The notes beneath the pieces are model-generated. The model saw only the letters and a program-made list of their open reading frames with translations. It was not told where the DNA came from and did no database searches. A stretch of 50,988 nt of DNA from the sequence record ON185587.1, one strand, 5' to 3'. The translations under genes were made by a program, and so were the position numbers. Numbering within the stretch: the stretch's first letter is position 1; each line of letters begins with the position of its first letter. Shown here piece after piece: positions 529-48,883 of the stretch. This stretch comes from Escherichia phage EC167.

Positions 529-2096
529 TGATCATATGGGAAGATTTGACGGCGGCGCAAAAGCGAGCCATTAAAGAAATCAGCGAGCATTCATTCGAAA
601 AGATGATCAGAATCTGGTTCCAATTGTTGCAGGGGCAAAAATTCCAGAGCAACTGGCATTTTAGCTTATTGTGCAGTGAGGTAGAGAAGATCATCAATGG
701 AGAGTCGCAGAATGTGATTTTCAACATTACGCCAGGTAGCGGTAAGACTGAGATTTTCTCGATCCACATGTCACCATACGCGTCATTGAAAAGCCGGAAG
801 GTGAGAAACCTTAACCTTTCGTTTAGTGATGGCCTTGTCCAGCAAAACAGCAACCGGATAAAGGAGATTATTGGTTCTCCTGAGTGGCAAGAGCTATGGC
901 CTGGAAAACTGGCAAAGGCGAGCGCTAAAGATCTGATAGTCACCGAAGGCGGAAAGGTTAAATTGCAAGTTAACTCACGTTCTATTGGCGGACAGGTAAC
1001 AGGTTTGCGTGGCGGCTATATGGACGATGGTTTTACTGGTATGCTTGTTCTTGACGATCCAGACAAGCCGGATGACATGCTTTCTAAGGTCAAGCGTGAG
1101 GCTATCCACATGCGGTTAAAAAACACGGTGCGATCGCGTCGAATGAAAGACACCACGCCGATTGTTATGGTGCAACAGCGACTACACGTTAATGATTCCA
1201 CCTGGTTTATGCTTAATGGCGGGATGGGTGGTATTGAGTTTAAAGTTGTGAGTATTCCGGCGCTGGTTACGAAAGAATACCGCGAAACGCTTCCTGATTG
1301 GTTGAAGCCTGAATTTGATCGTGATGTTCTGTCAAGTAAGCCAGTGATGATAGATGGCGTCGCTCATTATTCATTTTGGCCTGCGAAGGAAAGCGCGGAG
1401 GAGTTGCTTGCATTGCGCAATGCAGATCCTTACACGTTCGCCAGCCAATACCAACAGCAACCCATCGCGCTTGGCGGGAACGTGTTTAAAACAGAGTGGT
1501 TCCAGTATTACGGCAGCGGCGAAAAGTGCGCACTACCAAAACCGGATCGCTTTGAATACACATTTATTACTGGAGATACCGCGCAGAAGGCCGGAGAGCT
1601 TAACGACTATTCGGTTTTTTGTTATTGGGGGATGTATAAGAATCGCGTTTACTTCATTGATGGCATTCGCGGAAAGTGGGAAGCGCCTGATCTTGAATTA
1701 AATTTTATTGCCTTCGTTAACCAGTGTTGGAAGCGCAATAAAGAGTGTGGCAGCTTGCGACGTATCCACATTGAGGATAAGGCCAGCGGCACGGGCTTGA
1801 TTCAGGGGGCCAAAAAGAAGATACCGATTGATATAAATCCCGTTCAGCGAAGCAACGACAAGGTAACGCGAGCAATGGACGCCGCTCCAGTAATGAGGGC
1901 CGGACGTGTGGCACTGCCAGAAAATCACCCAATGCTGCCTGAGATACTGGCAGAGGTTGCAGCATTCACTTTTGATGATTCTCATCCCCATGATGATATT
2001 GTCGATAATATAGTTGATGCTGTTAACGTCGAAATGAACTTGGCAGATGATCCGGTGGCAAGGATGAAAAAGCTGGCAGGTCTACGCAATAAATAG
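528..2096 (+). CDS. terL: terminase large subunit (ATPase + nuclease)
   Basis: 522 aa; P-loop-like TPGSGKTE, Walker B-like LVLDDPD, acidic C-terminal nuclease-like region; position before portal. Confidence 0.85.
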   Translation: MIIWEDLTAAQKRAIKEISEHSFEKMIRIWFQLLQGQKFQSNWHFSLLCSEVEKIINGESQNVIFNITPGSGKTEIFSIHMSPYASLKSRKVRNLNLSFSDGLVQQNSNRIKEIIGSPEWQELWPGKLAKASAKDLIVTEGGKVKLQVNSRSIGGQVTGLRGGYMDDGFTGMLVLDDPDKPDDMLSKVKREAIHMRLKNTVRSRRMKDTTPIVMVQQRLHVNDSTWFMLNGGMGGIEFKVVSIPALVTKEYRETLPDWLKPEFDRDVLSSKPVMIDGVAHYSFWPAKESAEELLALRNADPYTFASQYQQQPIALGGNVFKTEWFQYYGSGEKCALPKPDRFEYTFITGDTAQKAGELNDYSVFCYWGMYKNRVYFIDGIRGKWEAPDLELNFIAFVNQCWKRNKECGSLRRIHIEDKASGTGLIQGAKKKIPIDINPVQRSNDKVTRAMDAAPVMRAGRVALPENHPMLPEILAEVAAFTFDDSHPHDDIVDNIVDAVNVEMNLADDPVARMKKLAGLRNK

Positions 2097-2112
2097 CACT
2101 AATTGCTAAAAA
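2092..2112 (+). promoter_or_regulatory. conserved intergenic motif, variant (AATAGCACTAATTGCTAAAAA), followed by TATATAAT
   Basis: Member of the 18-copy motif family; TAG stop of terL lies inside the motif. Confidence 0.4.
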
Positions 2113-2124
2113 GTTATATAATCA

Positions 2125-2150
2125 AGGCTGGATTTTTCCAGCCTTTTTTA
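2125..2150 (+). terminator. hairpin + U-tract immediately upstream of portal RBS
   Basis: AGGCTGGA-TTTT-TCCAGCCT followed by TTTTTTATT. Confidence 0.55.
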
Positions 2151-2166
2151 TTATGGAGATTTGACG

Positions 2167-3459
2167 ATGAGTGAAAAAACAAGGCTAGTTAAGGCCGATG
2201 GATACAACGAGATTTTCAAGGGTAGCAATGGCAATGGGCGTGTGGAGTTGCCTTTCTTTATGCAAGGGTTCGAATACACCACGCACGCTGATTTTTACAT
2301 TCGCGACGGCCTAGCAAAACGAATTATCGACGTTGTTCCAGAAGAAATGGTGACACCTGGATTTAATATTGATGGCGTGGAAGATGAGGAGAGTTTTAGA
2401 TCTTTGTGGGATGAGAAGCGACTAAACGATAAAATCATTGATGCGCTTTGCTGGTCGCGTCTTTTTGGTGGCGCTGCAATCGTGGCAATCGTTCAGGATG
2501 GCAGGGCATTAAAGTCACCTGTAGCGCCTGGTGCAATCCTTGAAGATGTTCGCGTTTACGATCGCTTTCAGGTTCGCGTAGAAAAGCGCGAAACTAATCC
2601 ACGTAAGGTGCGATATGGTGAGCCATTAATTTACACCATTTCACCTGGTGCGGACTTGCCAGAATATCAGGTTCACTATTCGCGAGTCTGTATTATCGAC
2701 GGTGAGCGGCTACCAAATCAGCGACGTCAGTCAAATGATGGTTGGGGTGAGTCAATCCTGAATAAGCGATTGGTTGAGGCTATTTGTGATTACAACTACT
2801 GCGAAAACTTAGCAACTCAATTGTTGCGACGTAAGCAACAGGCAGTATGGAAAGCTAAAGGACTTGCCGATCTTTGTGATGATGATGATGGTGTTAACGC
2901 CGCACGTTTGCGCCTTGCTCAAGTTGATGATGAGGGTGGCGTAGGCCGCGCGATCGGCATTGATGCGGAAGATGAGGAATATGATGTTTTAAATTCTGAT
3001 ATTTCCGGCGTCGATTCATTCCTGGAAAAGAAGATGGATCGCATTGTATCTCTTTCCGGCATCCATGAAATCATCCTCAAAAACAAGAACGTTGGCGGTG
3101 TTAGCGCGAGCCAAAACACGGCGCTTGAAACCTTCTACAAGCTGATCGATCGAAAGCGAAAGGAAGAATACAAACCAATCCTTGAATTTCTGATCCCGTT
3201 CCTGATTCAAGAGGAAGAATGGAGTATTCACTTTGCGCCGTTAAGCGTTCCCAGCGAAAAGGACCAGGCCGAGATCTTGAACAAGAATATTGATTCTTTG
3301 AGCAAGGCTATTGACGGTCAATTCATGGATACAGAGGAGGCGCGCGACACATTGCGAGCCATTGCGCCTAACGTTAAACTAAAGGACGGCAATAACATTA
3401 AATTACCTGAGCAGGACGTAGAGCTGGAGCCAGGAACAACCGAGGGTAGCAATCAATGA
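2167..3459 (+). CDS. portal protein
   Basis: ~430 aa ORF after terL with GGAG RBS; ORF-track start 2161 is a TTG, ATG at 2167 preferred; acidic C-terminus typical of portals. Confidence 0.75.
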   Translation: MSEKTRLVKADGYNEIFKGSNGNGRVELPFFMQGFEYTTHADFYIRDGLAKRIIDVVPEEMVTPGFNIDGVEDEESFRSLWDEKRLNDKIIDALCWSRLFGGAAIVAIVQDGRALKSPVAPGAILEDVRVYDRFQVRVEKRETNPRKVRYGEPLIYTISPGADLPEYQVHYSRVCIIDGERLPNQRRQSNDGWGESILNKRLVEAICDYNYCENLATQLLRRKQQAVWKAKGLADLCDDDDGVNAARLRLAQVDDEGGVGRAIGIDAEDEEYDVLNSDISGVDSFLEKKMDRIVSLSGIHEIILKNKNVGGVSASQNTALETFYKLIDRKRKEEYKPILEFLIPFLIQEEEWSIHFAPLSVPSEKDQAEILNKNIDSLSKAIDGQFMDTEEARDTLRAIAPNVKLKDGNNIKLPEQDVELEPGTTEGSNQ

Positions 3460-5888: not shown

Positions 5889-6902
5889 ATGGCTTATGAA
5901 AATTTAATGTTGCACGATGCATGTCCTGGCAATCTCTCTGATACTTCAACCTATAACATTGATGGCGATTGTGTTGCTCAAGGTGATATTGAGTTTGGAT
6001 CAGCGGTTCGGGTTGTCGGAATAGTTGATGGAATGAGGGTTGTGACGGCGCTTTCTGATGGTGAAACTCCTTACGGCATCGCTTTTCGTTCCCAATATGA
6101 GCACCTGAGCGGTAAAATTCTCGACGGAGAGGTGTGTAACGTCGTTTCTCACGGTCGGGTGTGGGCGCTTACTTCTCTTAGTGAAGCCCCGAAATCATTC
6201 TCAAAACTAAAAATCGGTGTTGGAGGAGTAGTAACTGGCGTAGATGATTATGTTGGCTGGACATTTGCTGGTGGCTTTGTTAAGCACGAAGACGGTCACA
6301 TTATTGAGGTTCAGGTGAAGCAAAATGCTCTAATCGTTCCACCCCCTCCGCCTCCTGTGGTGCTGGTAGAGTCTGCAACAATTAACACTGACAAGGAGAG
6401 TCCGCAGCCAAACAATGCTCCTGTAAAATGCAGTATCACAGTAGAGCCTGGCAACGCCACCGATAAAACTGGTGTTTGGTCTGTTGATGCTGTAAACATT
6501 GCGACTATTGATGCCGATACCGGTATTCTAACTCCTGTTGGTGGTGATGCATTCGGTAGTGTAAACGTAAATTGGACGGCTAACGATGCAAGCAAGACTA
6601 AGGCCACGATTGTTTATCAATTCGAAAAAGCTGTTGTTAGCGTCGCTAGTGCAACCGTAAGCCTTGAGAAAAATTCTGCAATTGTTGGTGAAACCGTTCA
6701 GGCGAGCGTTGTCGTTGCTCCAGAAGATGCTACCAATAAATCCGGATCTTGGTCGTTGTCAAATGGTGATTTTGCATCCGCAGATCCTAGCACTGGACTG
6801 GTAACTACCAGTGCCGCTGGCGAAGTTGATGTTATCTGGACAGCTGCGGATGGTTCTGGCGTTAAAGGTCAGCAAAGACTAACAATTACCGATCCTGAAT
6901 AA
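5889..6902 (+). CDS. capsid decoration-like protein with C-terminal Ig-like (Big_2-type) domains
   Basis: 337 aa; N-terminal paralogue of the 5350 gene, poly-Pro linker (PPPPPPVV), then repeated Ig-like segments. Confidence 0.55.
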   Translation: MAYENLMLHDACPGNLSDTSTYNIDGDCVAQGDIEFGSAVRVVGIVDGMRVVTALSDGETPYGIAFRSQYEHLSGKILDGEVCNVVSHGRVWALTSLSEAPKSFSKLKIGVGGVVTGVDDYVGWTFAGGFVKHEDGHIIEVQVKQNALIVPPPPPPVVLVESATINTDKESPQPNNAPVKCSITVEPGNATDKTGVWSVDAVNIATIDADTGILTPVGGDAFGSVNVNWTANDASKTKATIVYQFEKAVVSVASATVSLEKNSAIVGETVQASVVVAPEDATNKSGSWSLSNGDFASADPSTGLVTTSAAGEVDVIWTAADGSGVKGQQRLTITDPE

Positions 6903-6919: not shown

Positions 6920-6940
6920 GCTTTAACAAAAAGTGCTATC
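6920..6940 (-). promoter_or_regulatory. conserved intergenic motif, inverted relative to downstream capsid gene
   Basis: Plus strand reads GCTTTAACAAAAAGTGCTATC; also reads as TTGACG-16-TATCAT on the plus strand. Confidence 0.4.
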
Positions 6941-6944
6941 ATCT

Positions 6945-6970
6945 AGGCTGTTACATTTAACAGCCTTTTA
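6945..6970 (+). terminator. hairpin + short U-tract immediately upstream of major capsid RBS
   Basis: AGGCTGTT-ACATTT-AACAGCCT then TTT. Confidence 0.45.
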
Positions 6971-6983
6971 TGGAGGAAACAAA

Positions 6984-9941: not shown

Positions 9942-10604
9942 ATGCATTTACCAAATGGATCGCAAATTTTCGTTGAGAGCAATCGCGGAAGCGAAATCCA
10001 AGCAACAGCAGTGTCAAACGCCAAAGATCCTGTTTTCACTGTTGCATCTGGCGGCACTGCGTACAAGAAAGGTGATTATGTGATCATCACTGCGTCTTCT
10101 TGGGGTAAGCTGATTGATCGTGTTATGCGTGTAAAGGCTAACGGTGAAGAAACAAGCGTGACTCTTGAAGGTGTAGATACTACTGATCCGAACGTTTTCC
10201 CGACTGGCGGTACTGCATCTTTTGCCAAAATTGATGCATGGACTGAGATCCCTTGCGTTCAAGATTTGTCGCAGGACGGCGGCGAACAGCAATACTACAC
10301 TTATCAGTGTTTGGCAGACGATCAGGAACAGCAGTTACCTACCTATAAGAGCGCCGTTTCTCTTACCTACACTTTTGCGCACGAATACGATAACGCGATC
10401 TATCCGTTACTTCGTGCAGCAGATGAATCCGGCGCTGTAACGGCGCTTCGTATGTATGTACCAAAAGCAAAAGAGATGCGTTGCTGGGCTGGCGTCCTTT
10501 CGTTCAACGAGATCCCACAGACCACGGTTAACGAAATGGAGACTGTTTCCCTTTCTGTATCCCTGAAAGGTCGATTCACCTTCCTACCTTCTCAAGTAAC
10601 ATAA
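9942..10604 (+). CDS. major tail protein
   Basis: 220 aa, strong RBS AAAGGAG, followed by a strong terminator and then the chaperone/tape-measure genes. Confidence 0.6.
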   Translation: MHLPNGSQIFVESNRGSEIQATAVSNAKDPVFTVASGGTAYKKGDYVIITASSWGKLIDRVMRVKANGEETSVTLEGVDTTDPNVFPTGGTASFAKIDAWTEIPCVQDLSQDGGEQQYYTYQCLADDQEQQLPTYKSAVSLTYTFAHEYDNAIYPLLRAADESGAVTALRMYVPKAKEMRCWAGVLSFNEIPQTTVNEMETVSLSVSLKGRFTFLPSQVT

Positions 10605-10608
10605 TAAC

Positions 10609-10633
10609 AAGGGGCGTTGCGCCCCTTTTTTTG
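10609..10633 (+). terminator. intrinsic terminator after major tail gene
   Basis: GGGGCG-TTGC-GCCCC followed by TTTTTTTTG. Confidence 0.7.
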
Positions 10634-10670
10634 TTACTGTACAATCATGCTACACGATTCATAATCAATT

Positions 10671-10691
10671 CTTTTAACAAAAAGTGCTATC
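10671..10691 (-). promoter_or_regulatory. conserved intergenic motif, inverted, directly upstream of chaperone RBS
   Basis: Plus strand reads CTTTTAACAAAAAGTGCTATC then AAGGAG RBS. Confidence 0.4.
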
Positions 10692-21386: not shown

Positions 21387-21881
21387 TACTCCTTAGTTGT
21401 TGTTGGCTGTAACTATACACGATCCGGCAAGCCGAGTTTAGCAAAAAGTGCTACTTGTTATTTTTTGTTTTCCAGCGTTATCGAATTTAAGACGGCGCAA
21501 ATTTAGCGCAAATTTTAGACAACATAAGAGCAATAAACAATCAATAAAATAGATACATACATATAAAATCAATAGTTTATTTATTTATGTATGTATATTT
21601 GTTTTTTCTTGTTATCTGTGTTTCTTGTGGTTTTGGTTGTTTGTGGTGATTTTTCTTTCTGAGTATCTGCATGTGCCATCATTCATGTGTATGTATATAA
21701 TCCTGCGTATCTGAGAGAACAAGGGAACAAGAAAAATAACACATGTTAATCATTAACTTACATGTCAGATTTGTTTTCTTGCCATCTGAGAACGTTTAGG
21801 AAACAGAAAAAACAAAACAACTATTGACTAAATCAACCAAATGGCTACAATGCACACACAAAGCAACAAGGAGCATCAAAG
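21387..21881. promoter_or_regulatory. AT-rich non-coding control region 1 (divergent promoters, inverted and tandem repeats)
   Basis: 495 bp without credible ORF; 13-bp inverted repeat TACATACATATAA/TTATGTATGTA, tandem GCGCAAATTT x2, IHF-like AATCAATAGTTTA, GGGAACAAGAAAAA box, TTGACT-17-TACAAT promoter for exo-erf-ssb. Confidence 0.6.
21436..21455 (-). promoter_or_regulatory. conserved intergenic motif variant upstream of Cor-like operon
   Basis: Minus strand reads AGTAGCACTTTTTGCTAAAC followed by GTATAGT. Confidence 0.45.
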
Positions 21882-26930: not shown

Positions 26931-26951
26931 AATAGCACTTTTTGCTAATGA
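26931..26951 (+). promoter_or_regulatory. conserved intergenic motif, inverted relative to adjacent tail fiber gene
   Basis: AATAGCACTTTTTGCTAATGA 17 nt from tail fiber start codon, pointing toward terminator at 26981-27005. Confidence 0.4.
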
Positions 26952-26980
26952 CAATGCAGATAATAGCATTTTCAAATGCA

Positions 26981-28492: not shown

Positions 28493-28513
28493 CATAGCAT
28501 TTTTTGTTAAAAC
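28493..28513 (+). promoter_or_regulatory. conserved intergenic motif upstream of helicase operon
   Basis: CATAGCATTTTTTGTTAAAAC, then AT-rich TATTATAT; lies in divergent region with HTH gene. Confidence 0.45.
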
Positions 28514-28569
28514 AGTTTATTGTAATGATTCTATTATATACTCCAAATGGCATTTTTTAAAGGTTTAAG

Positions 28570-30567: not shown

Positions 30568-30986
30568 TGGCTATAACTGATAAAGGCGATTATCTTGAGT
30601 TTTACGAAAGGGATCCAACCGACACGAGAAGGGAAGTTAATCACCAGATAGATAGTTTTCAGTGGTTGACTTATGCTCATCCTTATTTGCTGGCGTGGCA
30701 TACGGTAAACGAGAATGAGAAGTCTAAAGCAACGGCGATGATTGATCAGCAGTCCGGCTTGGTTAAGGGAGTAAGCGATTTCATCATCCTGATTGGTTTA
30801 AACGGAAAATACCCCTTTGCAGCGATTGAGATCAAACGAGTGAATAAATCAGGCAAGGGGAAAGCATCACCAGTCAGCGATGAACAAAAGGCTTTTTTGC
30901 GTCGAGTTCGCAGCTTAGGAGGATTCGCTGCGGTCGCCTACGGATTTAATCAGTTTAAGTTGGCTATTGAATACATGCTTAAATAG
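30567..30986 (+). CDS. VRR-NUC domain nuclease
   Basis: 139 aa; PD-(D/E)XK-like GVSDFIIL...AIEIK motif; overlaps helicase stop. Confidence 0.55.
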   Translation: MAITDKGDYLEFYERDPTDTRREVNHQIDSFQWLTYAHPYLLAWHTVNENEKSKATAMIDQQSGLVKGVSDFIILIGLNGKYPFAAIEIKRVNKSGKGKASPVSDEQKAFLRRVRSLGGFAAVAYGFNQFKLAIEYMLK

Positions 30987-31002
30987 CACTTTTTGTTAAA
31001 AC
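30982..31002 (+). promoter_or_regulatory. conserved intergenic motif + GC dyad + CATAAT upstream of dam
   Basis: AATAGCACTTTTTGTTAAAAC, dyad GGCGCGATGGATTGCGCC, CATAATT; TAG stop of upstream gene inside motif. Confidence 0.5.
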
Positions 31003-31065
31003 TGGCGCGATGGATTGCGCCATAATTCAATAATACGAGATAGCTTTTAATAGCGGAGAAATGAA

Positions 31066-31795: not shown

Positions 31796-32053
31796 ATGGA
31801 AAAAGAGAGAAGCGTTTATTTAAATGAAACTGGCGAGTGGTTGTTATTTCGCGCTATGGTGTGCGATGCACTTGATAAAAACCCTAACGTGAAAAAGATG
31901 ATTGATTGCGATCCGTGGGAATTTTCAAGCGCATTAGATATGAGCTTTGAGGAGACAAGAAAACTCCCGCTTGAAAAATGGCACGAACAAATCAGAAATG
32001 ACATGCAAGAGTTTGTCGATTCGTGGAATTTTCAGCACGGAATGATCCACTAA
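31796..32053 (+). CDS. hypothetical protein
   Basis: 85 aa ORF, ends with stop inside conserved motif. Confidence 0.4.
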   Translation: MEKERSVYLNETGEWLLFRAMVCDALDKNPNVKKMIDCDPWEFSSALDMSFEETRKLPLEKWHEQIRNDMQEFVDSWNFQHGMIH

Positions 32054-32072
32054 TAGCACTTTTTGTTAAAAC
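32052..32072 (+). promoter_or_regulatory. conserved intergenic motif + dyad GCCCGGCCTAGTGTCGGGC + CATAAT
   Basis: Canonical copy; near-identical dyad to the minus-strand copy at 35776. Confidence 0.5.
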
Positions 32073-32128
32073 GCCCGGCCTAGTGTCGGGCATAATTATT
32101 TCAACGAAGAAAACATGAGGAAATAAAA

Positions 32129-35715: not shown

Positions 35716-35775
35716 AATTTTACCTTTTGGTTGTTTCGTTTCGATGAAACAAATATACCCGACACTAGGCCTGGC

Positions 35776-35796
35776 GTTTTAACAAAAAATGCTATT
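35776..35796 (-). promoter_or_regulatory. conserved intergenic motif (minus orientation)
   Basis: Minus strand: AATAGCATTTTTTGTTAAAAC + dyad + TATATT. Confidence 0.5.
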
Positions 35797-37885: not shown

Positions 37886-37937
37886 TCGTTAGCTTCTCCT
37901 TTGTGGGCCGTAAATTTTAACGGCCCAATACTACCCC

Positions 37938-37958
37938 GTTTTGTCAAAAAGTGCTATT
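37938..37958 (-). promoter_or_regulatory. conserved intergenic motif variant (TTGACA form)
   Basis: Minus strand: AATAGCACTTTTTGACAAAAC + dyad GGGCCG..CGGCCC. Confidence 0.5.
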
Positions 37959-38874: not shown

Positions 38875-38929
38875 CGTTTATTTCTCCTTTCGTTTCGGTG
38901 AAGTGATTATGCAAGGTTTTTACATCTGG

Positions 38930-38950
38930 CTTTTAACAAAAAGTGCTATT
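38930..38950 (-). promoter_or_regulatory. conserved intergenic motif (minus orientation)
   Basis: Minus strand: AATAGCACTTTTTGTTAAAAG ... GCATAAT. Confidence 0.5.
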
Positions 38951-39632
38951 TTGAGTTTGACTCAAAGACGGCGCGAGCAAAGCCGCGCGGAGTGAGTGAG
39001 CGTAGTTGCTTTGTTCTGGCAGACTTACCGCCTAAAAACTTCCAACCCCAAAAGAACATTACGCCCTCATCATTGGATAACGGCTTGCGTTCGGGTTCTG
39101 TAAATCCGTTGCCGCACCAGATAGCAGTCCTTTTTGTGTAGCCATCCTTTATCGGCATCTTGGGGTGAAAAGATCCATCGGATTCGTCCAGGTAGTTACC
39201 AAAATCTCGAGGATTGAAATAAAAATCAGGCTTTCGCCATAGCGTTGATAGTCGGCCTACAGGATTCTCAGCCATCCAGGGGACACCGAAATGATTCCCG
39301 ACAGTTTCAACCATGATTGCATTTTTGAGCGCAACCTGAATATCATCATCGCTTCGCACGTGCTTGATTCCTGATTGGGCAAACATGGTGCAGTCTGGAA
39401 ATCCAAATACAATATCTGGTTTTGGAATACCAATCTTACTGATTCTTTCAATGAAATTTTCATCAATCCACATATTTACATAATGCAGATTTTCATGTTT
39501 CATCTTGATGAAATATTCTCCGTGATTGCCTTCATCAGCGTTAAAGCAATAGCATTGATAGCCAGCCTTCGCATATTCAAGCAGCATGATTCCAGATCCA
39601 TCAAACATTGAGTAAGCAACTTTATTTCCCAT
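38946..39632 (-). CDS. minimal cytosine-C5 methyltransferase-like protein
   Basis: ~228 aa; motif I FDGSG, motif IV-like GFPDCTMF (canonical GFPCQ), ETV for ENV, C-terminal RSLTPRGFARAV resembling the LTPRE motif; almost no target-recognition domain; start at MGNK preferred. Confidence 0.45.
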   Translation of the reverse strand: MGNKVAYSMFDGSGIMLLEYAKAGYQCYCFNADEGNHGEYFIKMKHENLHYVNMWIDENFIERISKIGIPKPDIVFGFPDCTMFAQSGIKHVRSDDDIQVALKNAIMVETVGNHFGVPWMAENPVGRLSTLWRKPDFYFNPRDFGNYLDESDGSFHPKMPIKDGYTKRTAIWCGNGFTEPERKPLSNDEGVMFFWGWKFLGGKSARTKQLRSLTPRGFARAVFESNSK

Positions 39633-40149
39633 GATTTTTATGATACCCCAATTCATTCTCGGCTTTACGTTTTGCGGCAACAGCATCTCCAAAACTGGAA
39701 AAACAACCTATATAAATCCTACTTCCTCGCTTTCCGCCTCCAACCCTTACAACCCATTTGCCATGTTTATTTTTATGCACACATGGTATGCCACTTTTAT
39801 TGTTTTTCTGCTTTGATGTGTTTCGCATATTTCCTTTGTGATCTTTTAACTCAAAGTTTATTGCTCTGTTATCAGTCGTAATGTGATTTACGTGATCAAC
39901 CTCCTTTCCTTCAGGTATAGGCCCATAGTGCATTTCATAGCATATTCTATGAATTTTCAGGTTATAACGTTTTCCGTTTACAGTAAGTGCAGTTTCTAAA
40001 TATCTGCCACCACTACCCAAAGAGCCAACCTCATTACCAGCATTGCAAGCATTCCATTGTTTAGCTCTTGATTGGTGAATATCTTTTCTTTCTTTCCAGA
40101 ACAGCTTTCCAGTTTCTGGATTGTATGTAAAGTAATCATGCCAATTCAT
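39622..40149 (-). CDS. HNH homing endonuclease with AP2 domain
   Basis: HNH motif (HRICYEMHYG..VDHVNH..DNR..N) and AP2-like SGIPCV segment. Confidence 0.7.
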   Translation of the reverse strand: MNWHDYFTYNPETGKLFWKERKDIHQSRAKQWNACNAGNEVGSLGSGGRYLETALTVNGKRYNLKIHRICYEMHYGPIPEGKEVDHVNHITTDNRAINFELKDHKGNMRNTSKQKNNKSGIPCVHKNKHGKWVVRVGGGKRGSRIYIGCFSSFGDAVAAKRKAENELGYHKNHGK

Positions 40150-41787: not shown

Positions 41788-42458
41788 TGCTATCTCCTGA
41801 TCGGTTCGTTTTGATGTGTGTAATGTACCCGATCAGGTGGCCTGAGTTTTAACAAAAAGTGCTATTTGACGGTTAGCGCCAGGATTGCGATCGAAATAAT
41901 CATAAGTAATCATTCGTAATCAAATCACGTCAAAATGATGATTGCCTTTGCAAATTTGATGAGAAAAGCAATCACGTTTAATCATTGGTTGCAGGGGAGA
42001 TAGTGAAACCTTCCCCTCTCGCCTCACTTTTTTGCCTGGCTGTCAGTGGTTGTTATGTTCCGTTCCTGCGTGTTCTTTTGTTGACCTTCCGCAAAATACG
42101 ATAACAAAAAATAACAAACAATACCTATATAATACATTGAAAAATAAGGATTATTTATTTATATGTATCTATATATTCTCTTTTGTTATCTTGGTTATTG
42201 TGGTATTTGGTGGGGGTATATAGTTTTTGTGTATCTGTATGTGTGTATGGGTATGTAGGGGTATATATATCTATATGGCGCTTTCCGCGAGAAAACTTCG
42301 ATAACAAGCAATGATAACATTGATTTATAAGGAAAAATAACGCCTATATTGTTATTGTGCCACCATATAAAATTGATAAAACACGCGGGAACAAGAAAAA
42401 ACAGTTGACACATTAAATAGCATTATTGATAATGCCCACACCTAACAACCAGGAGGCA
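41788..42458. promoter_or_regulatory. AT-rich non-coding control region 2 (divergent promoters, iterons, dyads)
   Basis: 671 bp without credible ORF; TAATCAT repeats phased at 10 bp (41897, 41907, 41917) plus further copies; hairpin + U-tract at about 42003-42045; GT-rich repeats homologous to region 1; GGGAACAAGAAAAA box; TTGACA-17-GATAAT promoter for early genes. Confidence 0.6.
41846..41866 (-). promoter_or_regulatory. conserved intergenic motif (minus orientation)
   Basis: Minus strand: AATAGCACTTTTTGTTAAAAC upstream of 41787 gene. Confidence 0.5.
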
Positions 42459-42926
42459 GAAATGAGCGAGCAATCATTCACTGACACGCTGCGCCGTGCC
42501 GCTATTATGCTGGCTAATGGCGAGGAAGAGACGATCAAGATTCCTGACGCGTATTTGCAGGTCCACATGTTCGGCAAGAAGTCGGCAAGCAATCCGGCGG
42601 CCTACATTCGCCAGATCATGAGTCGAGTGCCAGAAGTCGCCGAGCGGGGGCGCGTATCCGTTACCCGTGACGTTTACGGGCCGGAAGATGAAAACTTCGG
42701 TAGCACTTTCTACGAGGTGCGGATTGTTGAAGGCCGTCGCAAGGTTTACAACAAAGAGGCACTGGAAAGGGCAGTGCGCCAGGCTAAGCGCAAGGTTGCA
42801 GAGGCGATCATTGATATGTCACCAAACCTGGCAAACTATGCGCCGGAAGAGTATGAAACGTTATCAAAGGCCGTCGCTGACTTTCACGCGATGATCAAAA
42901 AAACTTTCCTGGAGGATGAACAATGA
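42459..42926 (+). CDS. hypothetical early protein (first gene of plus-strand early operon)
   Basis: 155 aa from ATG 42459 (RBS CAGGAGG); immediately downstream of TTGACA-17-GATAAT promoter. Confidence 0.5.
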   Translation, partial: EMSEQSFTDTLRRAAIMLANGEEETIKIPDAYLQVHMFGKKSASNPAAYIRQIMSRVPEVAERGRVSVTRDVYGPEDENFGSTFYEVRIVEGRRKVYNKEALERAVRQAKRKVAEAIIDMSPNLANYAPEEYETLSKAVADFHAMIKKTFLEDEQ

Positions 42927-43194
42927 AAAGGCGTTAATCGGTGTTTTGGTGGCAATGGCATTCCTGACCGGGTGCAAAGAAGATGGCGCGCATGTTGGCA
43001 ATGTGCAGATGGCTAACCCTGGCGATGACTACAGCGTAAGGGAGCTATTCACCGCTGACGGTTGCACCGTTTACCGATTCTATGACGGTCGCACTGTTTA
43101 CTTCACCAACTGCAAGGGCGCTACTAGCTGGGAAGTGTCGAAAAGCAATGGCAAAGGCACGAAGACAGAACATATGACCGTCGAGGCAAAATAG
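42916..43194 (+). CDS. small lipoprotein
   Basis: 92 aa; signal peptide with lipobox (AFLTG-C); four Cys in mature part. Confidence 0.5.
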   Translation: MNNEKALIGVLVAMAFLTGCKEDGAHVGNVQMANPGDDYSVRELFTADGCTVYRFYDGRTVYFTNCKGATSWEVSKSNGKGTKTEHMTVEAK

Positions 43195-43210
43195 CACTTT
43201 TTGTTAAAAC
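43190..43210 (+). promoter_or_regulatory. conserved intergenic motif + dyad GCCAGGTGCAAAGCCTGGC + CATAAT
   Basis: Canonical copy; TAG stop of lipoprotein gene inside motif. Confidence 0.5.
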
Positions 43211-43266
43211 GCCAGGTGCAAAGCCTGGCATAATAGCCTCATCGAAACGAGATTGAGGAAACAAAA

Positions 43267-43467: not shown

Positions 43468-43653
43468 ATGAAAACGAAATTAGTCCATAAGTCAGAAATC
43501 AAGATCGGCGATACTGTGATTCACAACGGAGAGCTTAGAACGGTAGGCAAAGAGTCAATAAGCCACGATGAATTTATGGGGATCTTGTTGTTCGGTGACT
43601 CTTATCATCTTGGTTACAAGATGGTTGAGCTTGTGGAAGAGGTAAAATTCTAA
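43468..43653 (+). CDS. hypothetical protein
   Basis: 61 aa, RBS. Confidence 0.4.
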   Translation: MKTKLVHKSEIKIGDTVIHNGELRTVGKESISHDEFMGILLFGDSYHLGYKMVELVEEVKF

Positions 43654-43673
43654 ATAGCACTTTTTGTTAAAAC
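43653..43673 (+). promoter_or_regulatory. conserved intergenic motif + GCATAAT
   Basis: Canonical motif; no clear dyad in this copy. Confidence 0.5.
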
Positions 43674-43751
43674 TCGAAAGCGATAACCAGGCATAATAAA
43701 TCACATAGGGCGGCACGGCGTCGCCCACAAAACCAATCAGGAGAAAGCACC

Positions 43752-44857: not shown

Positions 44858-44878
44858 AATAGCACTTTTTGTTAAAGC
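44858..44878 (+). promoter_or_regulatory. conserved intergenic motif + TATAAT inside dyad
   Basis: AATAGCACTTTTTGTTAAAGC then GGCCAGGTATAATGGCC. Confidence 0.5.
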
Positions 44879-44931
44879 TCAAATGTGGGGCCAGGTATAA
44901 TGGCCTCACTTTCAACGAAGGAGATAAAACG

Positions 44932-45362: not shown

Positions 45363-46084
45363 AAAAATACACTTTCGAACTGTGGGGCAAGAAGTACGAA
45401 TTAATGACCAGTAAGCCGATTGTTATCGTTGACATGGACGGCACGCTATCGGACGGATCGCATCGCTTGCACTTGCTGCCAACTGAAAACTTGCACCTTA
45501 CCGAAAGCTGGTCCAAGTTCAACAAGGCCGCCGCCAAAGATGCGCCGATTAGTAGCACGATTGCTGTTATTAACGGATTGTGGGTATCTGGATTTGCAAT
45601 CGTTATCCTGACCGGACGCAGCGACGAAGTTCGCCAGGAAACGAAACACTGGCTTAATGATAATGGAGTCAAGCACGACGCGTTAATCATGCGCCGCAAG
45701 GAAGATAACAGAAAAGACACGATCATCAAAGAGGAAGTCTTGCGAGCTATCGGACTGGAAAACATTGTGTGCGCTTTTGACGATTCGCCGAACGTGGTTA
45801 AGCACTTCCGCAGCTTGGGTATTACAACCTATCAGGTCACGGAATACGACAAGCCACACGCTCACATACAATCTCACGGCGTGGAATCAATCAAGATAAC
45901 GAAGCGCGCCCGATTCGTTGGCAGCAAAGATATCCTTGTCAATGCCAGCTTTACCAGAGGAATAGCCTATGACGTTGTTTCTTATCATGACAAGAGTTTA
46001 TGGTTCATGATGATTCTGGATGCGCCTGGTCATTCAATCATAGTGACGGCGATTTTGTTAATGCGTAATAGCACTTTTTGTTAA
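45359..46084 (+). CDS. HAD-superfamily phosphatase (nucleotidase / polynucleotide 3'-phosphatase-like)
   Basis: DxDGT motif I (IVIVDMDGTLSD), downstream T/S and K/D motifs of HAD fold; overlaps upstream stop. Confidence 0.55.
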   Translation: MKKYTFELWGKKYELMTSKPIVIVDMDGTLSDGSHRLHLLPTENLHLTESWSKFNKAAAKDAPISSTIAVINGLWVSGFAIVILTGRSDEVRQETKHWLNDNGVKHDALIMRRKEDNRKDTIIKEEVLRAIGLENIVCAFDDSPNVVKHFRSLGITTYQVTEYDKPHAHIQSHGVESIKITKRARFVGSKDILVNASFTRGIAYDVVSYHDKSLWFMMILDAPGHSIIVTAILLMRNSTFC

Positions 46085-46087
46085 AAC
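46067..46087 (+). promoter_or_regulatory. conserved intergenic motif + dyad enclosing TATAGT
   Basis: AATAGCACTTTTTGTTAAAAC; GGGCTTGCGGTATAGTAAGCCC; overlaps 3' end of phosphatase gene. Confidence 0.5.
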
Positions 46088-46142
46088 ATCTTAACGGGCT
46101 TGCGGTATAGTAAGCCCATCAGCAACAAACGAGGATTAAATC

Positions 46143-46982: not shown

Positions 46983-47573
46983 ATGAAACGAGACATTATT
47001 ATCCTTAATGGGCCGCCTGGCTGTGGAAAGGACACTATTGCAGCTTACCTAACGGGCCATCGTTACCCAGCGGTTAAGGCATCATTCAAGCAACCTATGT
47101 TCGACATTGCTTTTTCTATGCTTGGCCCGACTCGATACGATGAATTTATGGACCTGTACAACGACAGAGAGCAAAAAGAAAATCCTCAAGTTATCTTAGG
47201 CGGCAAGTCACCTCGACAATTCATGATCTGGATTAGCGAGGATGTAATGAAGCCAGTTTTTGGGGATCACTATTTCGGGCGTCGAATGGTTGAAGAGATT
47301 CACGATATGTACCGAGATTTGGCGGTTGTGATCAGTGATGGCGGATTCCCCGAAGAAATCAAGCCGATTGTTAATGCAGGGCATGAAGTGCATATTTGCC
47401 GATTGCATCGCGACGGCTTCACGTTTGCTGGCGATTCGCGAAACTATATTGACCTGAGCGGTTATCACTATCGAATCCATCACTATGATTTCCACTTGCA
47501 GGACGGCAAGCAGGAACTTGCTGTAAACGAGATCGTCAATACTGTCAAATGGAAACACACACAGATTAAATAG
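46983..47573 (+). CDS. P-loop nucleotide kinase (dNMP kinase-like)
   Basis: Walker A GPPGCGKDT at N-terminus; size ~196 aa; resembles phage deoxynucleoside monophosphate kinases by motif only. Confidence 0.5.
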   Translation: MKRDIIILNGPPGCGKDTIAAYLTGHRYPAVKASFKQPMFDIAFSMLGPTRYDEFMDLYNDREQKENPQVILGGKSPRQFMIWISEDVMKPVFGDHYFGRRMVEEIHDMYRDLAVVISDGGFPEEIKPIVNAGHEVHICRLHRDGFTFAGDSRNYIDLSGYHYRIHHYDFHLQDGKQELAVNEIVNTVKWKHTQIK

Positions 47574-47589
47574 CACGAATTGCTAAACG
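47569..47589 (+). promoter_or_regulatory. conserved intergenic motif variant + dyad GCGGGG..CCCCGC + TATAAT
   Basis: AATAGCACGAATTGCTAAACG; TAG stop of kinase gene inside motif. Confidence 0.5.
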
Positions 47590-47643
47590 CGGGGTTATCG
47601 GCCCCGCTATAATGCTCACATCAACAAGCAATAGGAAATCGCA

Positions 47644-48123: not shown

Positions 48124-48372
48124 ATGGTTTTTAGCGCATTGAAACGACTGTTTAAGCCGGAATACCGGATCGTATTTTGCCGCGACTGTTCTACTTATCA
48201 TGTGCAGCGACGCAGCTTAGGCGGCAATTGGCACTATGTTACAGACGACTTTTTCGGCATCATTGCCACTGAATTTAAGTATTACAGTGATGCTTATATG
48301 TACGTCAAGAAGCGCCACCGCTTACGCAAGTGTCGTTTTTCCGTACTGATTCACATTAATGATTGTTACTGA
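48124..48372 (+). CDS. hypothetical protein
   Basis: 82 aa; preceded by TTGATT-dyad-TATTAT promoter-like arrangement. Confidence 0.4.
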   Translation: MVFSALKRLFKPEYRIVFCRDCSTYHVQRRSLGGNWHYVTDDFFGIIATEFKYYSDAYMYVKKRHRLRKCRFSVLIHINDCY

Positions 48373-48379
48373 GGTGAAA

Positions 48380-48562
48380 ATGAAAACTGGTATTATTATT
48401 CTTTTCCTGATCCTTTTCGGTAGCCATTTAACAATTAACTATGAGGGCATTATGGCCTTTTGGGGCAACTTGATGGTTTTTGCCGCTGGTTCAATTACTG
48501 GCTACTCTGACGGAAAAAAGGACGGCGTTCGCAAGATGCTGATGGGGCTTAAACAAAAATAA
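48380..48562 (+). CDS. small membrane protein
   Basis: ~60 aa from ATG 48380 (GAGGTGA RBS); hydrophobic IIILFLILFG segment. Confidence 0.4.
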   Translation: MKTGIIILFLILFGSHLTINYEGIMAFWGNLMVFAAGSITGYSDGKKDGVRKMLMGLKQK

Positions 48563-48573
48563 GGGGATCTGAA

Positions 48574-48864
48574 ATGGCAAACAAAACTTACCGCAAACTA
48601 CTGGTTAGCGCTTTTGAAAACATCGCGCAGTGTAACAAGTGGAACGACTCTAAACACTCGCCAGTCACAATGAAGCGCGCCGGATTCAAAAATGCTCGTT
48701 CATGGGCGCGAGCTTTCGCAGCTTGCTATATGCCGGATGGTGGACTAGGAGCGATGAACGATTTTTTGATCAACATGATAGAGGAAGCTGCGCGAGATGA
48801 TCGACCGCTGACACAGCGAGATTTTGACGACTTCGCGCGCGATGAGCTTTACTATCTGAGCTAA
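48574..48864 (+). CDS. hypothetical protein
   Basis: 96 aa; stop just before conserved motif. Confidence 0.4.
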   Translation: MANKTYRKLLVSAFENIAQCNKWNDSKHSPVTMKRAGFKNARSWARAFAACYMPDGGLGAMNDFLINMIEEAARDDRPLTQRDFDDFARDELYYLS

Positions 48865-48883
48865 TAGCACTTTTTATTAAAAC
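48863..48883 (+). promoter_or_regulatory. conserved intergenic motif variant (TTATTA form) + dyad
   Basis: AATAGCACTTTTTATTAAAAC then GGGCATTTGATAAAGTGCCC. Confidence 0.45.

Follow-up and report, generated by a model that had tools for sequence, protein, structure and literature searches.

Here, we analysed a window of 50,988 nt, a Drexlerviridae (Warwickvirus) genome of a T1-like coliphage (Escherichia phage EC167, ON185587.1), and found that its 21-nt repeat fits a regulatory box of the host. It appears fairly likely that each forward copy (14 of the 18 copies are co-oriented with the downstream gene) serves as the upstream half of a 'class II mar/sox/rob' sigma70 promoter. Since the repeat matches the mar/sox/rob box (marbox), to which MarA, SoxS and Rob, host activators of stress responses and antibiotic resistance, bind, and is placed as in the E. 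coli micF promoter, the phage probably uses a host regulator, through which its early and middle genes would run.

The 21-mer has 14 matches in the window at no more than three mismatches, against 0.01 expected from shuffles. The other four copies (2092+, 21436-, 26931+ and 47569+) are TAGCAC-N3-TTGCTAA variants, the one at 21436- aligning best at 21435-21455; the 18 copies reported by the first-pass annotation were thus all recovered. The repeat itself is already published, as it is the same element as the "21-nt direct repeats" (DR1-DR18) of phage TLS, described in 2024 and noted in T1, Rtp and Rogue1 too (PMC11447400). The two sets share the consensus aaATAGCACnnnTTGnTAAAA and the copy number; both run with transcription and lie at comparable distances from start codons. 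In its accessible text, the TLS paper lists the function of the repeat as open (stoperator, enhancer site or UP element) and, unlike the present analysis, neither ties it to the marbox, nor gives a -10 hexamer at a fixed gap, nor makes the hairpins part of the unit (PMC11447400).

In 12 of the 14 forward copies, a -10-like hexamer lies exactly 18 nt after the 21-mer (CATAAT in five, and TATAAT, TATAGT, TATTAT, TATATT, TAAAAT, TACATT and TAAAGT in one each); in 21435- and 44858+ the gap is 17 nt (Table 1). The box is centred near -41, without a -35 hexamer, and its end is 48-78 nt from the start codon, where 55-75 nt had been claimed. The motif search in relatives that had been proposed earlier found the repeat across Drexlerviridae: among 291 unique instances from IMG/VR Drexlerviridae contigs, YAnnnT follows at a gap of exactly 18 nt in 227 (78%), position -14 is G in 85%, position -15 is T in 50%, and the predicted +1, within a conserved CA start, is A in 86%. 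The fixed gap, the G at -14 and the A at +1 support, at the level of sequence, a reading of the forward copies as promoter units in which a conserved upstream element would replace the -35 hexamer. The earlier statement that orientation follows the downstream gene holds for these 14 copies, and three others are reversed. In eight copies the upstream gene ends at the internal TAG, fewer than the at least ten claimed (the VRR-NUC gene, for instance, stops at the TAG inside the 30982+ box), and in a further four copies the upstream stop is a TAA overlapping the box. The 46067+ box lies within the 3' end of the PNK-phosphatase gene, with the stop TAA at 46082-46084.

The TTGTTA-to-ATAAT spacing of 22 bp had been given correctly, and neither the sigma70 -35/-10 spacing nor sigma54 nor sigma28 fits the repeat. 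Promoters of the sigma54 type (TGGCAC-N5-TTGCW) deserve hardly any credence: the similarity is one of words only (TAGCAC and TTGCT), the TAGCAC-N3-TTGC spacing is 2 bp short of the invariant GG-N10-GC, A stands in place of the first G of the GG pair, and a sigma54 reading would not account for the conserved -10 hexamer 18 nt downstream. Between 29.0 and 49.0 kb, canonical -35/-10 promoters show no enrichment, with 31 found against 39.5 in shuffles; a canonical sigma70 promoter is found at 42405-42433 (TTGACA-17-GATAAT).

Table 1. Copies of the repeat in the window. Predicted promoter, predicted class II marbox promoter; minus-strand elements are given in their own direction.
Feature	Coordinates	Strand	Box	-10 hexamer	Hairpin	Start codon	Remarks
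Predicted promoter, helicase/VRR-NUC unit	28493..28537	+	28493-28513 CATAGCATTTTTTGTTAAAAC	TATTAT 28532-28537		ATG 28570	predicted start ~28544
Predicted promoter, dam methylase	30982..31026	+	30982-31002	CATAAT 31021-31026	spacer, 31003-31022	ATG 31066	predicted start ~31033
Predicted promoter	32052..32096	+	32052-32072	CATAAT 32091-32096	spacer, 32073-32091	ATG 32129	
Predicted promoter	35752..35796	-	35796-35776	TATATT 35757-35752	weak	ATG 35715	
Predicted promoter, DUF3987-type helicase	37904..37958	-	37958-37938	TAAAAT 37919-37914	37927-37904, -10 in loop	ATG 37885	
Predicted promoter	38906..38950	-	38950-38930	CATAAT 38911-38906	absent	ATG 38874	
Predicted promoter	41822..41866	-	41866-41846	TACATT 41827-41822		ATG 41787	first of leftward early block
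Predicted promoter	43190..43234	+	43190-43210	CATAAT 43229-43234	spacer, 43211-43229	ATG 43267	
Predicted promoter	43653..43726	+	43653-43673	CATAAT 43692-43697	43708-43726, within predicted leader	ATG 43752	
Predicted promoter	44858..44909	+	44858-44878	TATAAT 44896-44901	44885-44909, -10 in loop	ATG 44932	17-nt gap
Predicted promoter	46067..46117	+	46067-46087	TATAGT 46106-46111	46096-46117, -10 in loop	ATG 46143	
Predicted promoter, GAA variant	47569..47613	+	47569-47589 AATAGCACGAATTGCTAAACG	TATAAT 47608-47613	47589-47607	ATG 47644	
Predicted promoter	48863..48913	+	48863-48883	TAAAGT 48902-48907	~48890-48913, -10 in loop	ATG 48940	one core mismatch (TTTAT)
Predicted promoter, Cor-like lipoprotein unit	21412..21455	-	21455-21435 AGTAGCACTTTTTGCTAAACT	TATAGT 21417-21412		21386	17-nt gap
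Atypical copy	2092..2151	+	2092-2112				at end of large terminase gene, TAG stop 2094-2096
Reversed box	6920..6966	-	6940-6920				between upstream stop 6900-6902 and major head gene
Reversed box	10647..10691	-	10691-10671			ATG 10704	abuts tail chaperone gene Shine-Dalgarno
Reversed box	26931..26968	+	26931-26951				opposite to both flanking genes

Aligned to the 20-bp mar/sox/rob box (AYnGCACnnWnnRYYAAAYn; core GCAnnWWnTGnnAAA), positions 2-21 of the repeat agree with the consensus. In the window, the exact core GCANNWWNTGNNAAA (PMC12052159) has 18 hits versus 1.67 expected, 16 of them repeats, and the box consensus AYNGCACNNWNNRYYAAAY (PMC2064960) at no more than one mismatch has 17 hits versus 1.32 expected, of which 14 are repeats; the main repeat variant, GCACTTTTTGTTAAA, fits the consensus GCAHWWWWTGYYAAA (PMC6900184) perfectly. 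Across 266 family instances, variation is limited to the N, W and Y positions of the box, and every specified position fits in at least 93%, except position 19, where micF likewise departs from the consensus. With a weight matrix trained on 85 Salmonella ChIP-seq sites of MarA/SoxS/Rob/RamA (PMC10268841, Table 1), repeats are the top 14 of the 101,948 15-mers in the window and score 15.2-17.7 bits (training median 11.2; micF 14.6). Some of the ChIP-seq-bound sites are identical to family variants, e.g. GCACAAATTGCTAAA.

A forward box that overlaps the -35 region without a -35 hexamer defines class II (PMC12052159, PMC6900184, PMC10268841). In E. coli K-12 micF, ACAGCACTGAATGTCAAAAC is followed by 18 nt, TAGAAT, 7 nt and +1; the phage box is identical to it at 15 of 20 positions and has the same 18-nt gap, and RamA is located at about -41 on micF (PMC8811837). 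The second E. coli example, fumC, fits the box, and its -10 hexamer is ambiguous. Thus, the phage-specific promoter class proposed by the first-pass annotation was not borne out, as the element fits the host box and its geometry is that of class II. The box does not vary among T1, TLS, Rtp and phages of Klebsiella, Erwinia and 'Vibrio', and a non-Drexlerviridae Klebsiella siphovirus contains none.

According to the reading we favour, the 20-bp asymmetric box at about -51 to -32 would be occupied by an AraC/XylS-family activator of the host, bound as a monomer (Rob, MarA or SoxS in E. coli; in Klebsiella and Salmonella, RamA as well). Through contacts with alpha-CTD and sigma region 4, the activator would make up for the absent -35 contact. 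DNA opening by RNA polymerase would take place at the TAnnnT hexamer, which lies 18 nt downstream and is often part of an extended -10 (TGnTAnnnT), and transcription would start at the conserved A ~7 nt past the hexamer, followed by an A-rich leader, the Shine-Dalgarno and the gene. The 14 units would wire essentially all early/middle (DNA-metabolism) genes to the host regulator, the remaining genes being served by few canonical sigma70 promoters, such as that at 42405-42433. In the literature searched, no report of protein binding, transcription starts or activator dependence was found for the repeats. Unstressed laboratory E. coli, with little MarA or SoxS and most of its Rob sequestered, supports good growth of T1-like phages. 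The classical mutations to T1 resistance lie in fhuA and tonB and are not known in rob, mar or sox. Strict dependence on one activator is therefore unlikely. Activation by MarA/SoxS/Rob-type activators is often just 2-4 fold (PMC8811837). The extended -10 of many of these promoters could work without an activator.

Good growth in unstressed cells would also suit an activator-free arrangement, in which extended -10 sigma70 promoters carry the 21-mer as an A/T-rich UP-like element for alpha-CTD/sigma region 4. The family-wide frequencies of G at -14 and T at -15 and the T- and A-tracts inside the element agree with it, and the TLS paper, in its accessible text, raises a UP element among its options and sees a likeness to those of T5 and T4 promoters (PMC11447400). 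Nevertheless, we regard it as quite unlikely: the invariant bases are GCA, TG and AAA rather than A/T tracts in general, the UP register (-59 to -38) is ~9 bp further upstream than the element (-51 to -31), and UP function predicts neither the top score in the MarA-family site matrix nor the micF-like box sequence and spacing.

On the other hand, a phage-encoded factor might read the box and activate or repress the promoters, the marbox likeness being convergence or mimicry; this we consider unlikely. Such a factor could be the conserved Cro-like regulator (28006-28482) or an immediate-early protein, for example the DUF7174 product expressed from the canonical promoter at 42405. The regulator belongs to the core genes of the family (829 phage records), and its N-terminal 30 residues are nearly invariant. 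The box lies 10-15 nt upstream of its start in nearly all 80 loci, an autoregulatory-looking layout (the 28493+ box is 10 nt upstream of the divergent regulator gene start and abuts its Shine-Dalgarno), but this adjacency is also explained if the box is the helicase promoter. In TLS, where only three canonical sigma70 promoters are present, one of them (P57) serves the regulator, which could thus be the first product made. The imperfect dyad in the box, TAGCA-N5-TG(C/T)TA, would suit a dimeric HTH protein, although most copies have TGTTA as the second half-site and the flanks lack symmetry. The phage box is also conserved beyond the marbox consensus, at positions 1-3 (ATA), 11-12 (TT) and 19-20 (AC), which could mean an extra or different reader. 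Against a phage-encoded factor, positions 10-11 vary as W only and position 15 as Y only (21-mer numbering), which is the degeneracy of the host box and would not be needed for mimicry. The regulator, which had been suggested earlier as the binding protein, proved a poor candidate. Its Cro-like fold comprises one Cro-type HTH, in contrast to the two of a MarA-like domain; its recognition helix is highly variable across the family (QQ..N, IQ..Q, LK..W, NS..T and others), and it is only ~50% identical among T1, TLS, Rtp and the Klebsiella, Erwinia and 'Vibrio' phages, in which the box does not change. No MarA homologue was detected in the phage (phmmer best E = 4.4), and Pfam found no HTH_18/AraC domain among the phage proteins.

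A GC-rich dyad had been said to follow most copies. Of the 14 promoter-type copies, 8 have a strong GC-rich hairpin (dG -12 to -18, z about -3 to -4.4) and the other six have no such hairpin. In four of the eight it occupies the spacer and reaches to the first base of the -10 hexamer, and in the other four it spans the hexamer. Compensatory changes occur in 6 of 8 and 4 of 5 predicted hairpin pairs of orthologous promoters, which upholds the reported covariation of the dyad. The idea that the hairpin sets promoter geometry was not supported, because its position relative to the -10 is not fixed. This, together with the T1 annotation of the hairpins as terminators and a rho-independent terminator marked by the TLS annotators, makes it more likely that they are 3'-end/terminator structures of the upstream unit which overlap the promoter. 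Their termination efficiency is doubtful since most hairpins in the window have no U-tract, and their role may instead be 3'-end protection. Under the host-activator reading, the hairpin would belong to the upstream transcription unit, after the stop codon inside the box, as its terminator, attenuator or 3'-end stabiliser. The start is predicted in the 3' arm or beyond it, no more than about 3 nt from where the arm ends, so the new transcript would lack the 5' arm and could not form the hairpin.

Hairpins after many copies, with their annotation as terminators in T1 and TLS, would also be compatible with repeats that are no promoters, i.e. repressor or 'stoperator'-type roadblock sites (an analogy raised in the accessible text of PMC11447400) or the upstream flank of intergenic terminators. 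Four copies are indeed found outside a promoter context, and in three of these the box separates a late -10-like hexamer from a Shine-Dalgarno. We think such a role very unlikely for the repeats, as the fixed 18-nt gap to TAnnnT in 78% of the 291 instances, with TGn and CA start, would be unexpected, the strong hairpin is missing from 6 of the 14 forward copies, and a temperate-type repressor is absent from these virulent phages.

Among the four copies without promoter geometry, three are reversed and one stands before a terminator. After the 2092+ box come a true terminator (stem ~2124-2145 plus T-run), whose loop holds GATTTT at the +18 position, and the portal gene. The reversed copies had been placed directly on the ribosome-binding sites of late genes; this is true of 10671- and 26931+, while 6920- lies 31 nt upstream with a hairpin between. 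On the plus strand, the latter is followed by that hairpin (6945-6966, loop TACATT), TTTT, a Shine-Dalgarno (6972-6976) and ATG 6984. The 10671- box is preceded on the plus strand by a terminator and CATAAT (10660-10665), and on its own strand has TAGCAT (10652-10647) at +18, where the T1 orthologue has TAAGAT. Around 26931+, the order on the minus strand is the primase terminator, TGcTATTAT (26968-26960), 8 nt, the box, a Shine-Dalgarno (26930-26924) and the tail-fibre ATG 26915.

Several known systems resemble these units in part. Terminators overlapping promoters ('transcriptons' proposed for T1) likewise have a GC hairpin just past the upstream stop codon, and some family members show a full T-run with the -10 in the loop (T1 35995-; TLS DR10/T57), whereas the window hairpins mostly have no U-tract. 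The middle promoters of T4, dependent on MotA/AsiA, also combine a sigma70 -10, often extended, with an activator box that replaces the -35. The MotA box, TTTGCTTTA, resembles the phage word TTGCTAAA. However, it is centred at -30, with the phage TTGCT ~7 bp further upstream, and the T4 activator is phage-encoded, a domain that Pfam does not find in the early ORFs of the window. At class II CRP/FNR and lambda CII promoters, the activator site similarly overlaps or replaces the -35 at about -41.5, but dimers or tetramers bind symmetric or direct-repeat sites of other sequences, whereas the asymmetric phage box would fit a monomeric two-HTH protein. With micF and the class II MarA/SoxS/Rob(/RamA) promoters of E. 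coli, the phage copies share the 20-bp asymmetric box (with A at position 19 in common), its forward placement over the -35 region and the distance to the -10. They differ in that a virulent genome carries 14-20 near-consensus copies per 50 kb, at most early/middle genes, many of them supplemented by an extended -10 (TGn) and a GC hairpin that overlaps the promoter, whereas host boxes are degenerate and scattered.

The window is the complete or near-complete genome (50,988 bp) of a T1-like virulent coliphage that showed 98.6% identity across 8 kb to vB_Eco_mar001J1, tiwna, FritzSarasin and others, with tiwna classified in Drexlerviridae, Tempevirinae, Warwickvirus. Its gene blocks and the individual features discussed here are collected in the table. 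For relatives with 93% coverage, the alignment to the window consisted of two to three joined pieces, pointing to an insertion or deletion inside 28-36 kb by which they differ from it. Three HNH_3 endonuclease ORFs, similar to homing endonucleases, are located amid the early/middle genes, and an Mre11-like phosphoesterase ORF has an N-terminal HTH that weakly resembles sigma70 region 4 (Pfam Sigma70_r4_2, E = 0.004, below threshold).

Gene blocks, repeat copies without class II layout and other features of the window
Feature	Position	Strand or direction	Remark
Terminase, head and tail genes	1-20.2 kb	+	
Small Cor-like unit	after the tail genes	leftward	
Recombination genes	after the Cor-like unit		
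Tail fibre, primase and 'transcriptional regulator' genes	after the recombination genes	-	
Helicase, dam and lysis genes	after the regulator	rightward	
Early/middle gene block	35.5-41.9 kb	leftward	
Block of small early genes	42.4-51 kb	rightward	
Repeat copy	2092	+	true terminator follows, GATTTT in loop at +18
Repeat copy	6920	-	reversed relative to neighbouring late genes
Repeat copy	10671	-	reversed relative to neighbouring late genes
Repeat copy	26931	+	reversed relative to neighbouring late genes
Possible short antisense RNA	10606-10652	-	from reversed box 10691-10671
Bidirectional terminator	~10609-10634		
Intragenic 15-mer	660-674	-	outside repeat family
Intragenic 15-mer	10215-10229	+	outside repeat family
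Intragenic 15-mer	25800-25814	+	outside repeat family
Cro-like regulator	28006-28482	-	
Degenerate box remnant	28006-28022	-	regulator-primase junction
Hairpin with T-rich tail	32073-32091		
HNH_3 endonuclease ORF	32537-33022	+	
HNH_3 endonuclease ORF	38162-38683	-	
HNH_3 endonuclease ORF	39622-40149	-	
Mre11-like phosphoesterase ORF	33036-34232	+	
Divergent region	41867-42425		
Best canonical sigma70 promoter	42405-42433	+	TTGACA-17-GATAAT, 11/12
ORF (DUF7174, phrog_4841)	42426-42926		
Initial transcribed sequence (example)	43238-43251		C-n-C-A(+1)-T-C-G-A-A-A-C-G-A-A

All 18 repeat copies were found where the first-pass annotation had placed them: the 21-mer AATAGCACTTTTTGTTAAAAC had 14 matches with at most three mismatches in the window (0.01 expected), and the remaining four copies were TAGCAC-(TAA/GAA/TTT)-TTGCTAA variants. 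When the copies were aligned in their own orientation, a -10-like hexamer was observed exactly 18 nt past the 21-mer in 12 copies and 17 nt past it in two, and all 14 copies with such a hexamer face the next gene. The position for a -35 element with a 17-bp spacer reads AAAACn, which is no -35 hexamer, and the 21-mer, here called the box, occupies about -51 to -31 relative to the start predicted from the -10 hexamer and a conserved CA. Fourteen of the 18 copies are oriented with the downstream gene, as had been stated for the early and middle regions; the other four do not show promoter geometry. Start codons were located 48-78 nt past the box in the 14 copies, where 55-75 nt had been claimed, and the internal TAG is the stop codon of the upstream gene in eight copies rather than in at least ten, with a TAA overlapping the box in four more.

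A pattern scan of IMG/VR retrieved at least 120 stretches, most of them from Drexlerviridae contigs of ~50 kb, among which were T1, TLS and Rtp, and a few from single-match contigs of other sizes. A motif search in related T1-like genomes had been proposed, and both box and spacing recur across the family. Among the matches listed, YAnnnT was present at a gap of exactly 18 nt in 227 of 291 unique instances, with at most 28 at each of the other offsets. Within these 227 listed instances, G at -14 (85%) and T at -15 (50%) form an extended -10 element (TGn), a C-preceded A lies 7 nt past the hexamer as the expected start (86%), and an A-rich leader with the consensus CATCGAAACGAA and then a Shine-Dalgarno sequence follow downstream of this start. 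The hexamer at a fixed gap, the TGn element and the conserved CA identify the unit as a predicted sigma70-type promoter in which the 21-mer replaces the -35 region.

The predicted initial transcribed sequence is also conserved, at unit positions 49-62; it is A-rich, common to paralogous promoters and kept across the family, and CAACGAAACGAA is the most frequent 12-mer of the locus in Vc1, a phage recorded from Vibrio. This sequence may serve as a leader for translation or RNA stability.

The repeat has previously been described in phage TLS as a 21-nt element with the consensus aaATAGCACnnnTTGnTAAAA and A, T and G subgroups, and has been reported in T1, Rtp and Rogue1 as well; the authors recognized three canonical sigma70 promoters only, considered stoperators, enhancer-binding sites and UP elements, and listed the function as open (PMC11447400). 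In the early/middle region of the window, canonical -35/-10 promoters were not enriched (31 vs 39.5 in shuffles). The best of them in the early/middle half of the genome lies within the divergent region heading the rightward early block, directly upstream of the DUF7174 ORF, and is likely a host-only immediate-early promoter and the counterpart of TLS P01.

Several known elements were compared with the repeat. Our first idea, a dimeric-HTH dyad at -42, was rejected on two grounds: TAGCA-N5-TGYTA is an imperfect dyad, and changes in the Cro-like regulator of the phage are not mirrored in the box. A Cro/CI-type dimer operator was rejected on the imperfect dyad and on a recognition helix that varies under a constant box. 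As had been noted, sigma54 does not fit, since TAGCAC-N3-TTGC gives AG-N8-GC and not the GG-N10-GC required at -24/-12. For a T4 MotA-type middle promoter, TTGCT is centred near -37 whereas the MotA box is at -30. Lambda CII repeats (TTGC-N6-TTGC), Fis and IHF misfit in spacing or sequence, and the Lrp consensus reached 13/15 in one variant only, all four judged, like sigma54 and MotA, by inspection against their consensus sequences. The sigma54, MotA, CII, Lrp, Fis and IHF readings were set aside, superseded by the fit to the marbox, the site of the host activators MarA, SoxS and Rob.

The 20-bp asymmetric mar/sox/rob consensus AYNGCACNNWNNRYYAAAYN (PMC2064960), which corresponds to positions 2-21 of the repeat, had 17 matches with at most one mismatch in the window compared with 1.32 expected, and 14 of the 18 repeats were among them. 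The core derived from ChIP-seq, 5'-GCANNWWNTGNNAAA-3' (PMC12052159), had 18 exact matches compared with 1.67 expected, including 16 of the 18 repeats, the other two being one mismatch off, and the main variant agreed at 15/15 with the stricter pattern GCAHWWWWTGYYAAA (PMC6900184). Among 266 unique family boxes, collected with at most four substitutions and anchored by the downstream hexamer, each specified consensus position was obeyed in at least 93%, except position 19 (A, not Y), a deviation shared with the E. coli micF promoter. Only N, W and Y positions varied, with A or T alone at positions 9-10 and C or T alone at position 14. With a weight matrix built from 85 Salmonella ChIP-seq sites, repeats made up the top 14 of 101,948 15-mers and scored 15.2-17.7 bits, compared with 14.6 for micF and a training median of 11.2; some ChIP-bound sites are identical to family variants, such as GCACAAATTGCTAAA. 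Three intragenic 15-mers either agree with the marbox core or reach 12.4-14.7 bits with this matrix; chance alone would give ~1.7 exact core matches in the window.

In class II promoters, the forward box lies over the -35 region, 30-42 bp ahead of the start (on micF, its centre is at about -41), no recognisable -35 hexamer is present, and the activator touches both sigma region 4 and the alpha-CTD (PMC12052159, PMC8811837, PMC6900184, PMC10268841). In E. coli K-12, micF consists of ACAGCACTGAATGTCAAAAC, 18 nt, TAGAAT, 7 nt and the annotated +1 of MicF; it shares 15 of 20 box positions with the phage, including the A at position 19, and has the same 18-nt gap. For fumC, used as a second geometry reference, the box fits and the -10 hexamer is ambiguous. 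All 14 forward copies have every sequence feature of class II, their starts being predicted from sequence, and direct sequence tests make it very likely that the units are promoters whose marbox sits at the class II site. Instead of the phage-specific promoter class suggested in the first-pass annotation, sequence and spacing fit a host mar/sox/rob box in class II layout. Binding of the near-consensus phage boxes by Rob, MarA, SoxS or RamA in vitro is likely. No published link between marboxes and T1-like phages was found in our literature searches, and those on Drexlerviridae transcript maps and Rogue1 returned nothing on the function of the repeat; within the literature searched, the marbox assignment appears to be new for a repeat that was itself already known.

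We consider it reasonably probable that host activators drive these promoters. The weakest step of this model is that the phage would rely on Rob, MarA, SoxS or RamA in vivo, because T1-like phages thrive in laboratory cells that are not under stress. In addition, Rob has been reported as largely aggregated in such cells (PMC10268841), activation by the MarA family is often modest (PMC8811837), and the extended -10 elements of many copies may provide activator-independent activity. These elements favour an activator-independent, UP-like function of the box, an explanation that we regard as distinctly unlikely; non-promoter roles take up what remains of the probability after these explanations and a phage-encoded reader. 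The box is conserved beyond the consensus, which allows for a second or a different reader. No MarA/AraC homologue encoded by the phage was detected: the best hit of a phmmer search of all six reading frames, with E. coli MarA as query, had E = 4.4, and Pfam searches of 47 early/middle ORFs, concatenated into six queries, gave no HTH_18/AraC, sigma, MotA or AsiA match above threshold (Serglycin matches were artefacts of the GS linkers in the concatenated queries).

The phage regulator, previously proposed as the binder of the box, is encoded by a family core gene (829 phage records) and is predicted to be a single Cro-like all-alpha HTH protein (mean pLDDT 84), for which phmmer and Foldseek pointed to Xfaso-1 and N15 Cro. 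From one family member to another, the recognition helix of this protein differs greatly, whereas the box is invariant in the same genomes, which speaks against this protein. A phage-encoded reader in general is considered unlikely. The same box is present in phages recorded from Erwinia (Snitter) and Vibrio (Vc1, MT360682), in Vc1 also with the same spacing. Because the helix varies while the box is invariant even in Erwinia and Vibrio phages, these comparisons argue for a reader that would be conserved across hosts. The box is located 10-15 nt upstream of the regulator start in almost every lineage, but this adjacency is not decisive because the same box is the helicase promoter. A Klebsiella siphovirus outside the family, with only a distant HTH homologue, had 0 boxes. 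The most conserved part of the regulator is an N-terminal stretch, DKRTINGNNGTRRGKDKKPRK, which is nearly invariant and has a pLDDT of about 50.

The GC-rich dyad that had been noted after most copies was recovered as a strong hairpin at eight of the 14 forward copies (dG -12 to -18 kcal/mol, z about -3 to -4.4). Four of these hairpins take up the spacer and reach as far as the hexamer's first base, and four hold the hexamer in the loop. When promoters were grouped by downstream gene, the arms differed in sequence while pairing was kept; for the DUF3987 helicase they are GGGCCGT/ACGGCCC, GGTTGCCC/GGGCAAC, GGTGCGG/CCGCATC and GTTGCCGT/GCGGCAAC, with the -10 hexamer in each loop. According to RNAalifold, 6 of 8 pairs in the helicase group and 4 of 5 in the pooled spacer hairpins show compensatory double changes, which bears out the covariation of the dyad suspected earlier. 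The accompanying idea that the hairpin modulates promoter geometry was judged less likely than a 3'-end structure, since the hairpin takes no constant place with respect to the hexamer and a strong one is missing from six of the 14 copies.

In the window, a T-rich tail was observed only at copy 2092+ and at one further hairpin (table), and most hairpins have no U-tract; full T-runs are present in some family members. The T1 and TLS records mark several hairpins as rho-independent terminators, and the T1 GenBank record annotates terminators and no promoters or enhancers. In the simplest reading, the hairpin would form the 3' end of the upstream unit, which has its stop codon in the box, and would be packed onto the next promoter. 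The start is predicted in or after the 3' arm (at most about 3 nt from its end), so that the new transcript would leave out the 5' arm and escape the hairpin. Termination may be partial, or the hairpin may stabilise RNA, because most hairpins in the window lack a U-tract. Terminators of the opposite strand were rejected as a general explanation and are plausible only for the four spacer hairpins, which are followed on that strand by GTTTTAAC. At the regulator-primase junction of many relatives (T1 35995-35930 (-), TLS DR10/T57), the promoter is nested in a terminator: box, 18 nt and hexamer lie inside a complete terminator (stem, T6), and a Shine-Dalgarno sequence follows. Only a degenerate box remnant is present at this junction in the window, where both genes overlap.

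Among the four copies without class II layout, 10671- and 26931+ are located, on the gene strand, after a terminator and a -10-like hexamer (CATAAT; TGcTATTAT; in T1, TGaTAAAAT) and adjoin the Shine-Dalgarno sequence, so they would fall at about +1 to +22 of the predicted late transcripts. The claim that inverted copies sit directly on ribosome-binding sites is upheld for these two and not for 6920-, which is followed, just ahead of the major head gene, by a hairpin holding TACATT in the loop. On the strand of 10671- itself, TAnnAT at +18 is kept both here (TAGCAT) and in T1 (TAAGAT); a short antisense RNA from this reversed box is possible, and a bidirectional terminator is located about 10 nt past its predicted start. 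MarA represses purA, hdeA and rob via backward boxes over the core promoter. By analogy, it is conceivable that the reversed boxes repress late promoters.

A much wider scenario, to which we give only a slim chance, is that Drexlerviridae (>800 genomes) borrow host activators of antibiotic and oxidative stress responses as their early/middle code and time late genes by reversed boxes and titration. In a family lacking its own early/middle promoter code, forward boxes would switch on early/middle genes, while reversed boxes that cover the start sites or leaders of late promoters (those of tail fibre, tail chaperone/tape measure, major head and regulator) would hold these down until replication. 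Replication would multiply the roughly 18 high-affinity boxes per genome and thereby titrate a limited activator pool, which would bring about the early-to-late flip. If this is true, multidrug-resistant hosts constitutive for mar, ram or sox would be better hosts for Drexlerviridae, and loss of the activator would trade phage resistance against drug sensitivity.

To our knowledge, transcription control in T1, a classical T phage, and its relatives has never been worked out. The class II marbox reading makes the question left by the TLS authors directly testable by standard experiments; it differs from the accessible text of their paper, in which no -10 hexamer at a fixed distance, no hairpins within the unit and no known binding protein are given (PMC11447400). 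If the reading is true, gene expression in the Drexlerviridae, a large family isolated widely and in use against Klebsiella and E. coli, would be tied to MarA, SoxS, Rob and RamA, which are causes of clinical multidrug resistance, with a bearing on phage-antibiotic interactions, host-range prediction in Enterobacterales and the design of portable, stress-responsive phage promoters. These phages would also clearly exemplify reliance of a virulent phage on a host transcription activator in place of its own sigma factor, polymerase or co-activator. The host itself offers a similar arrangement: in E. coli K-12, the fumC marbox (ATGGCACGAAAGACCAAACA) begins 3 nt past the T-run of the fumA terminator, and this packing of terminator and then box between fumA and fumC resembles the intergenic cassettes of the phage.
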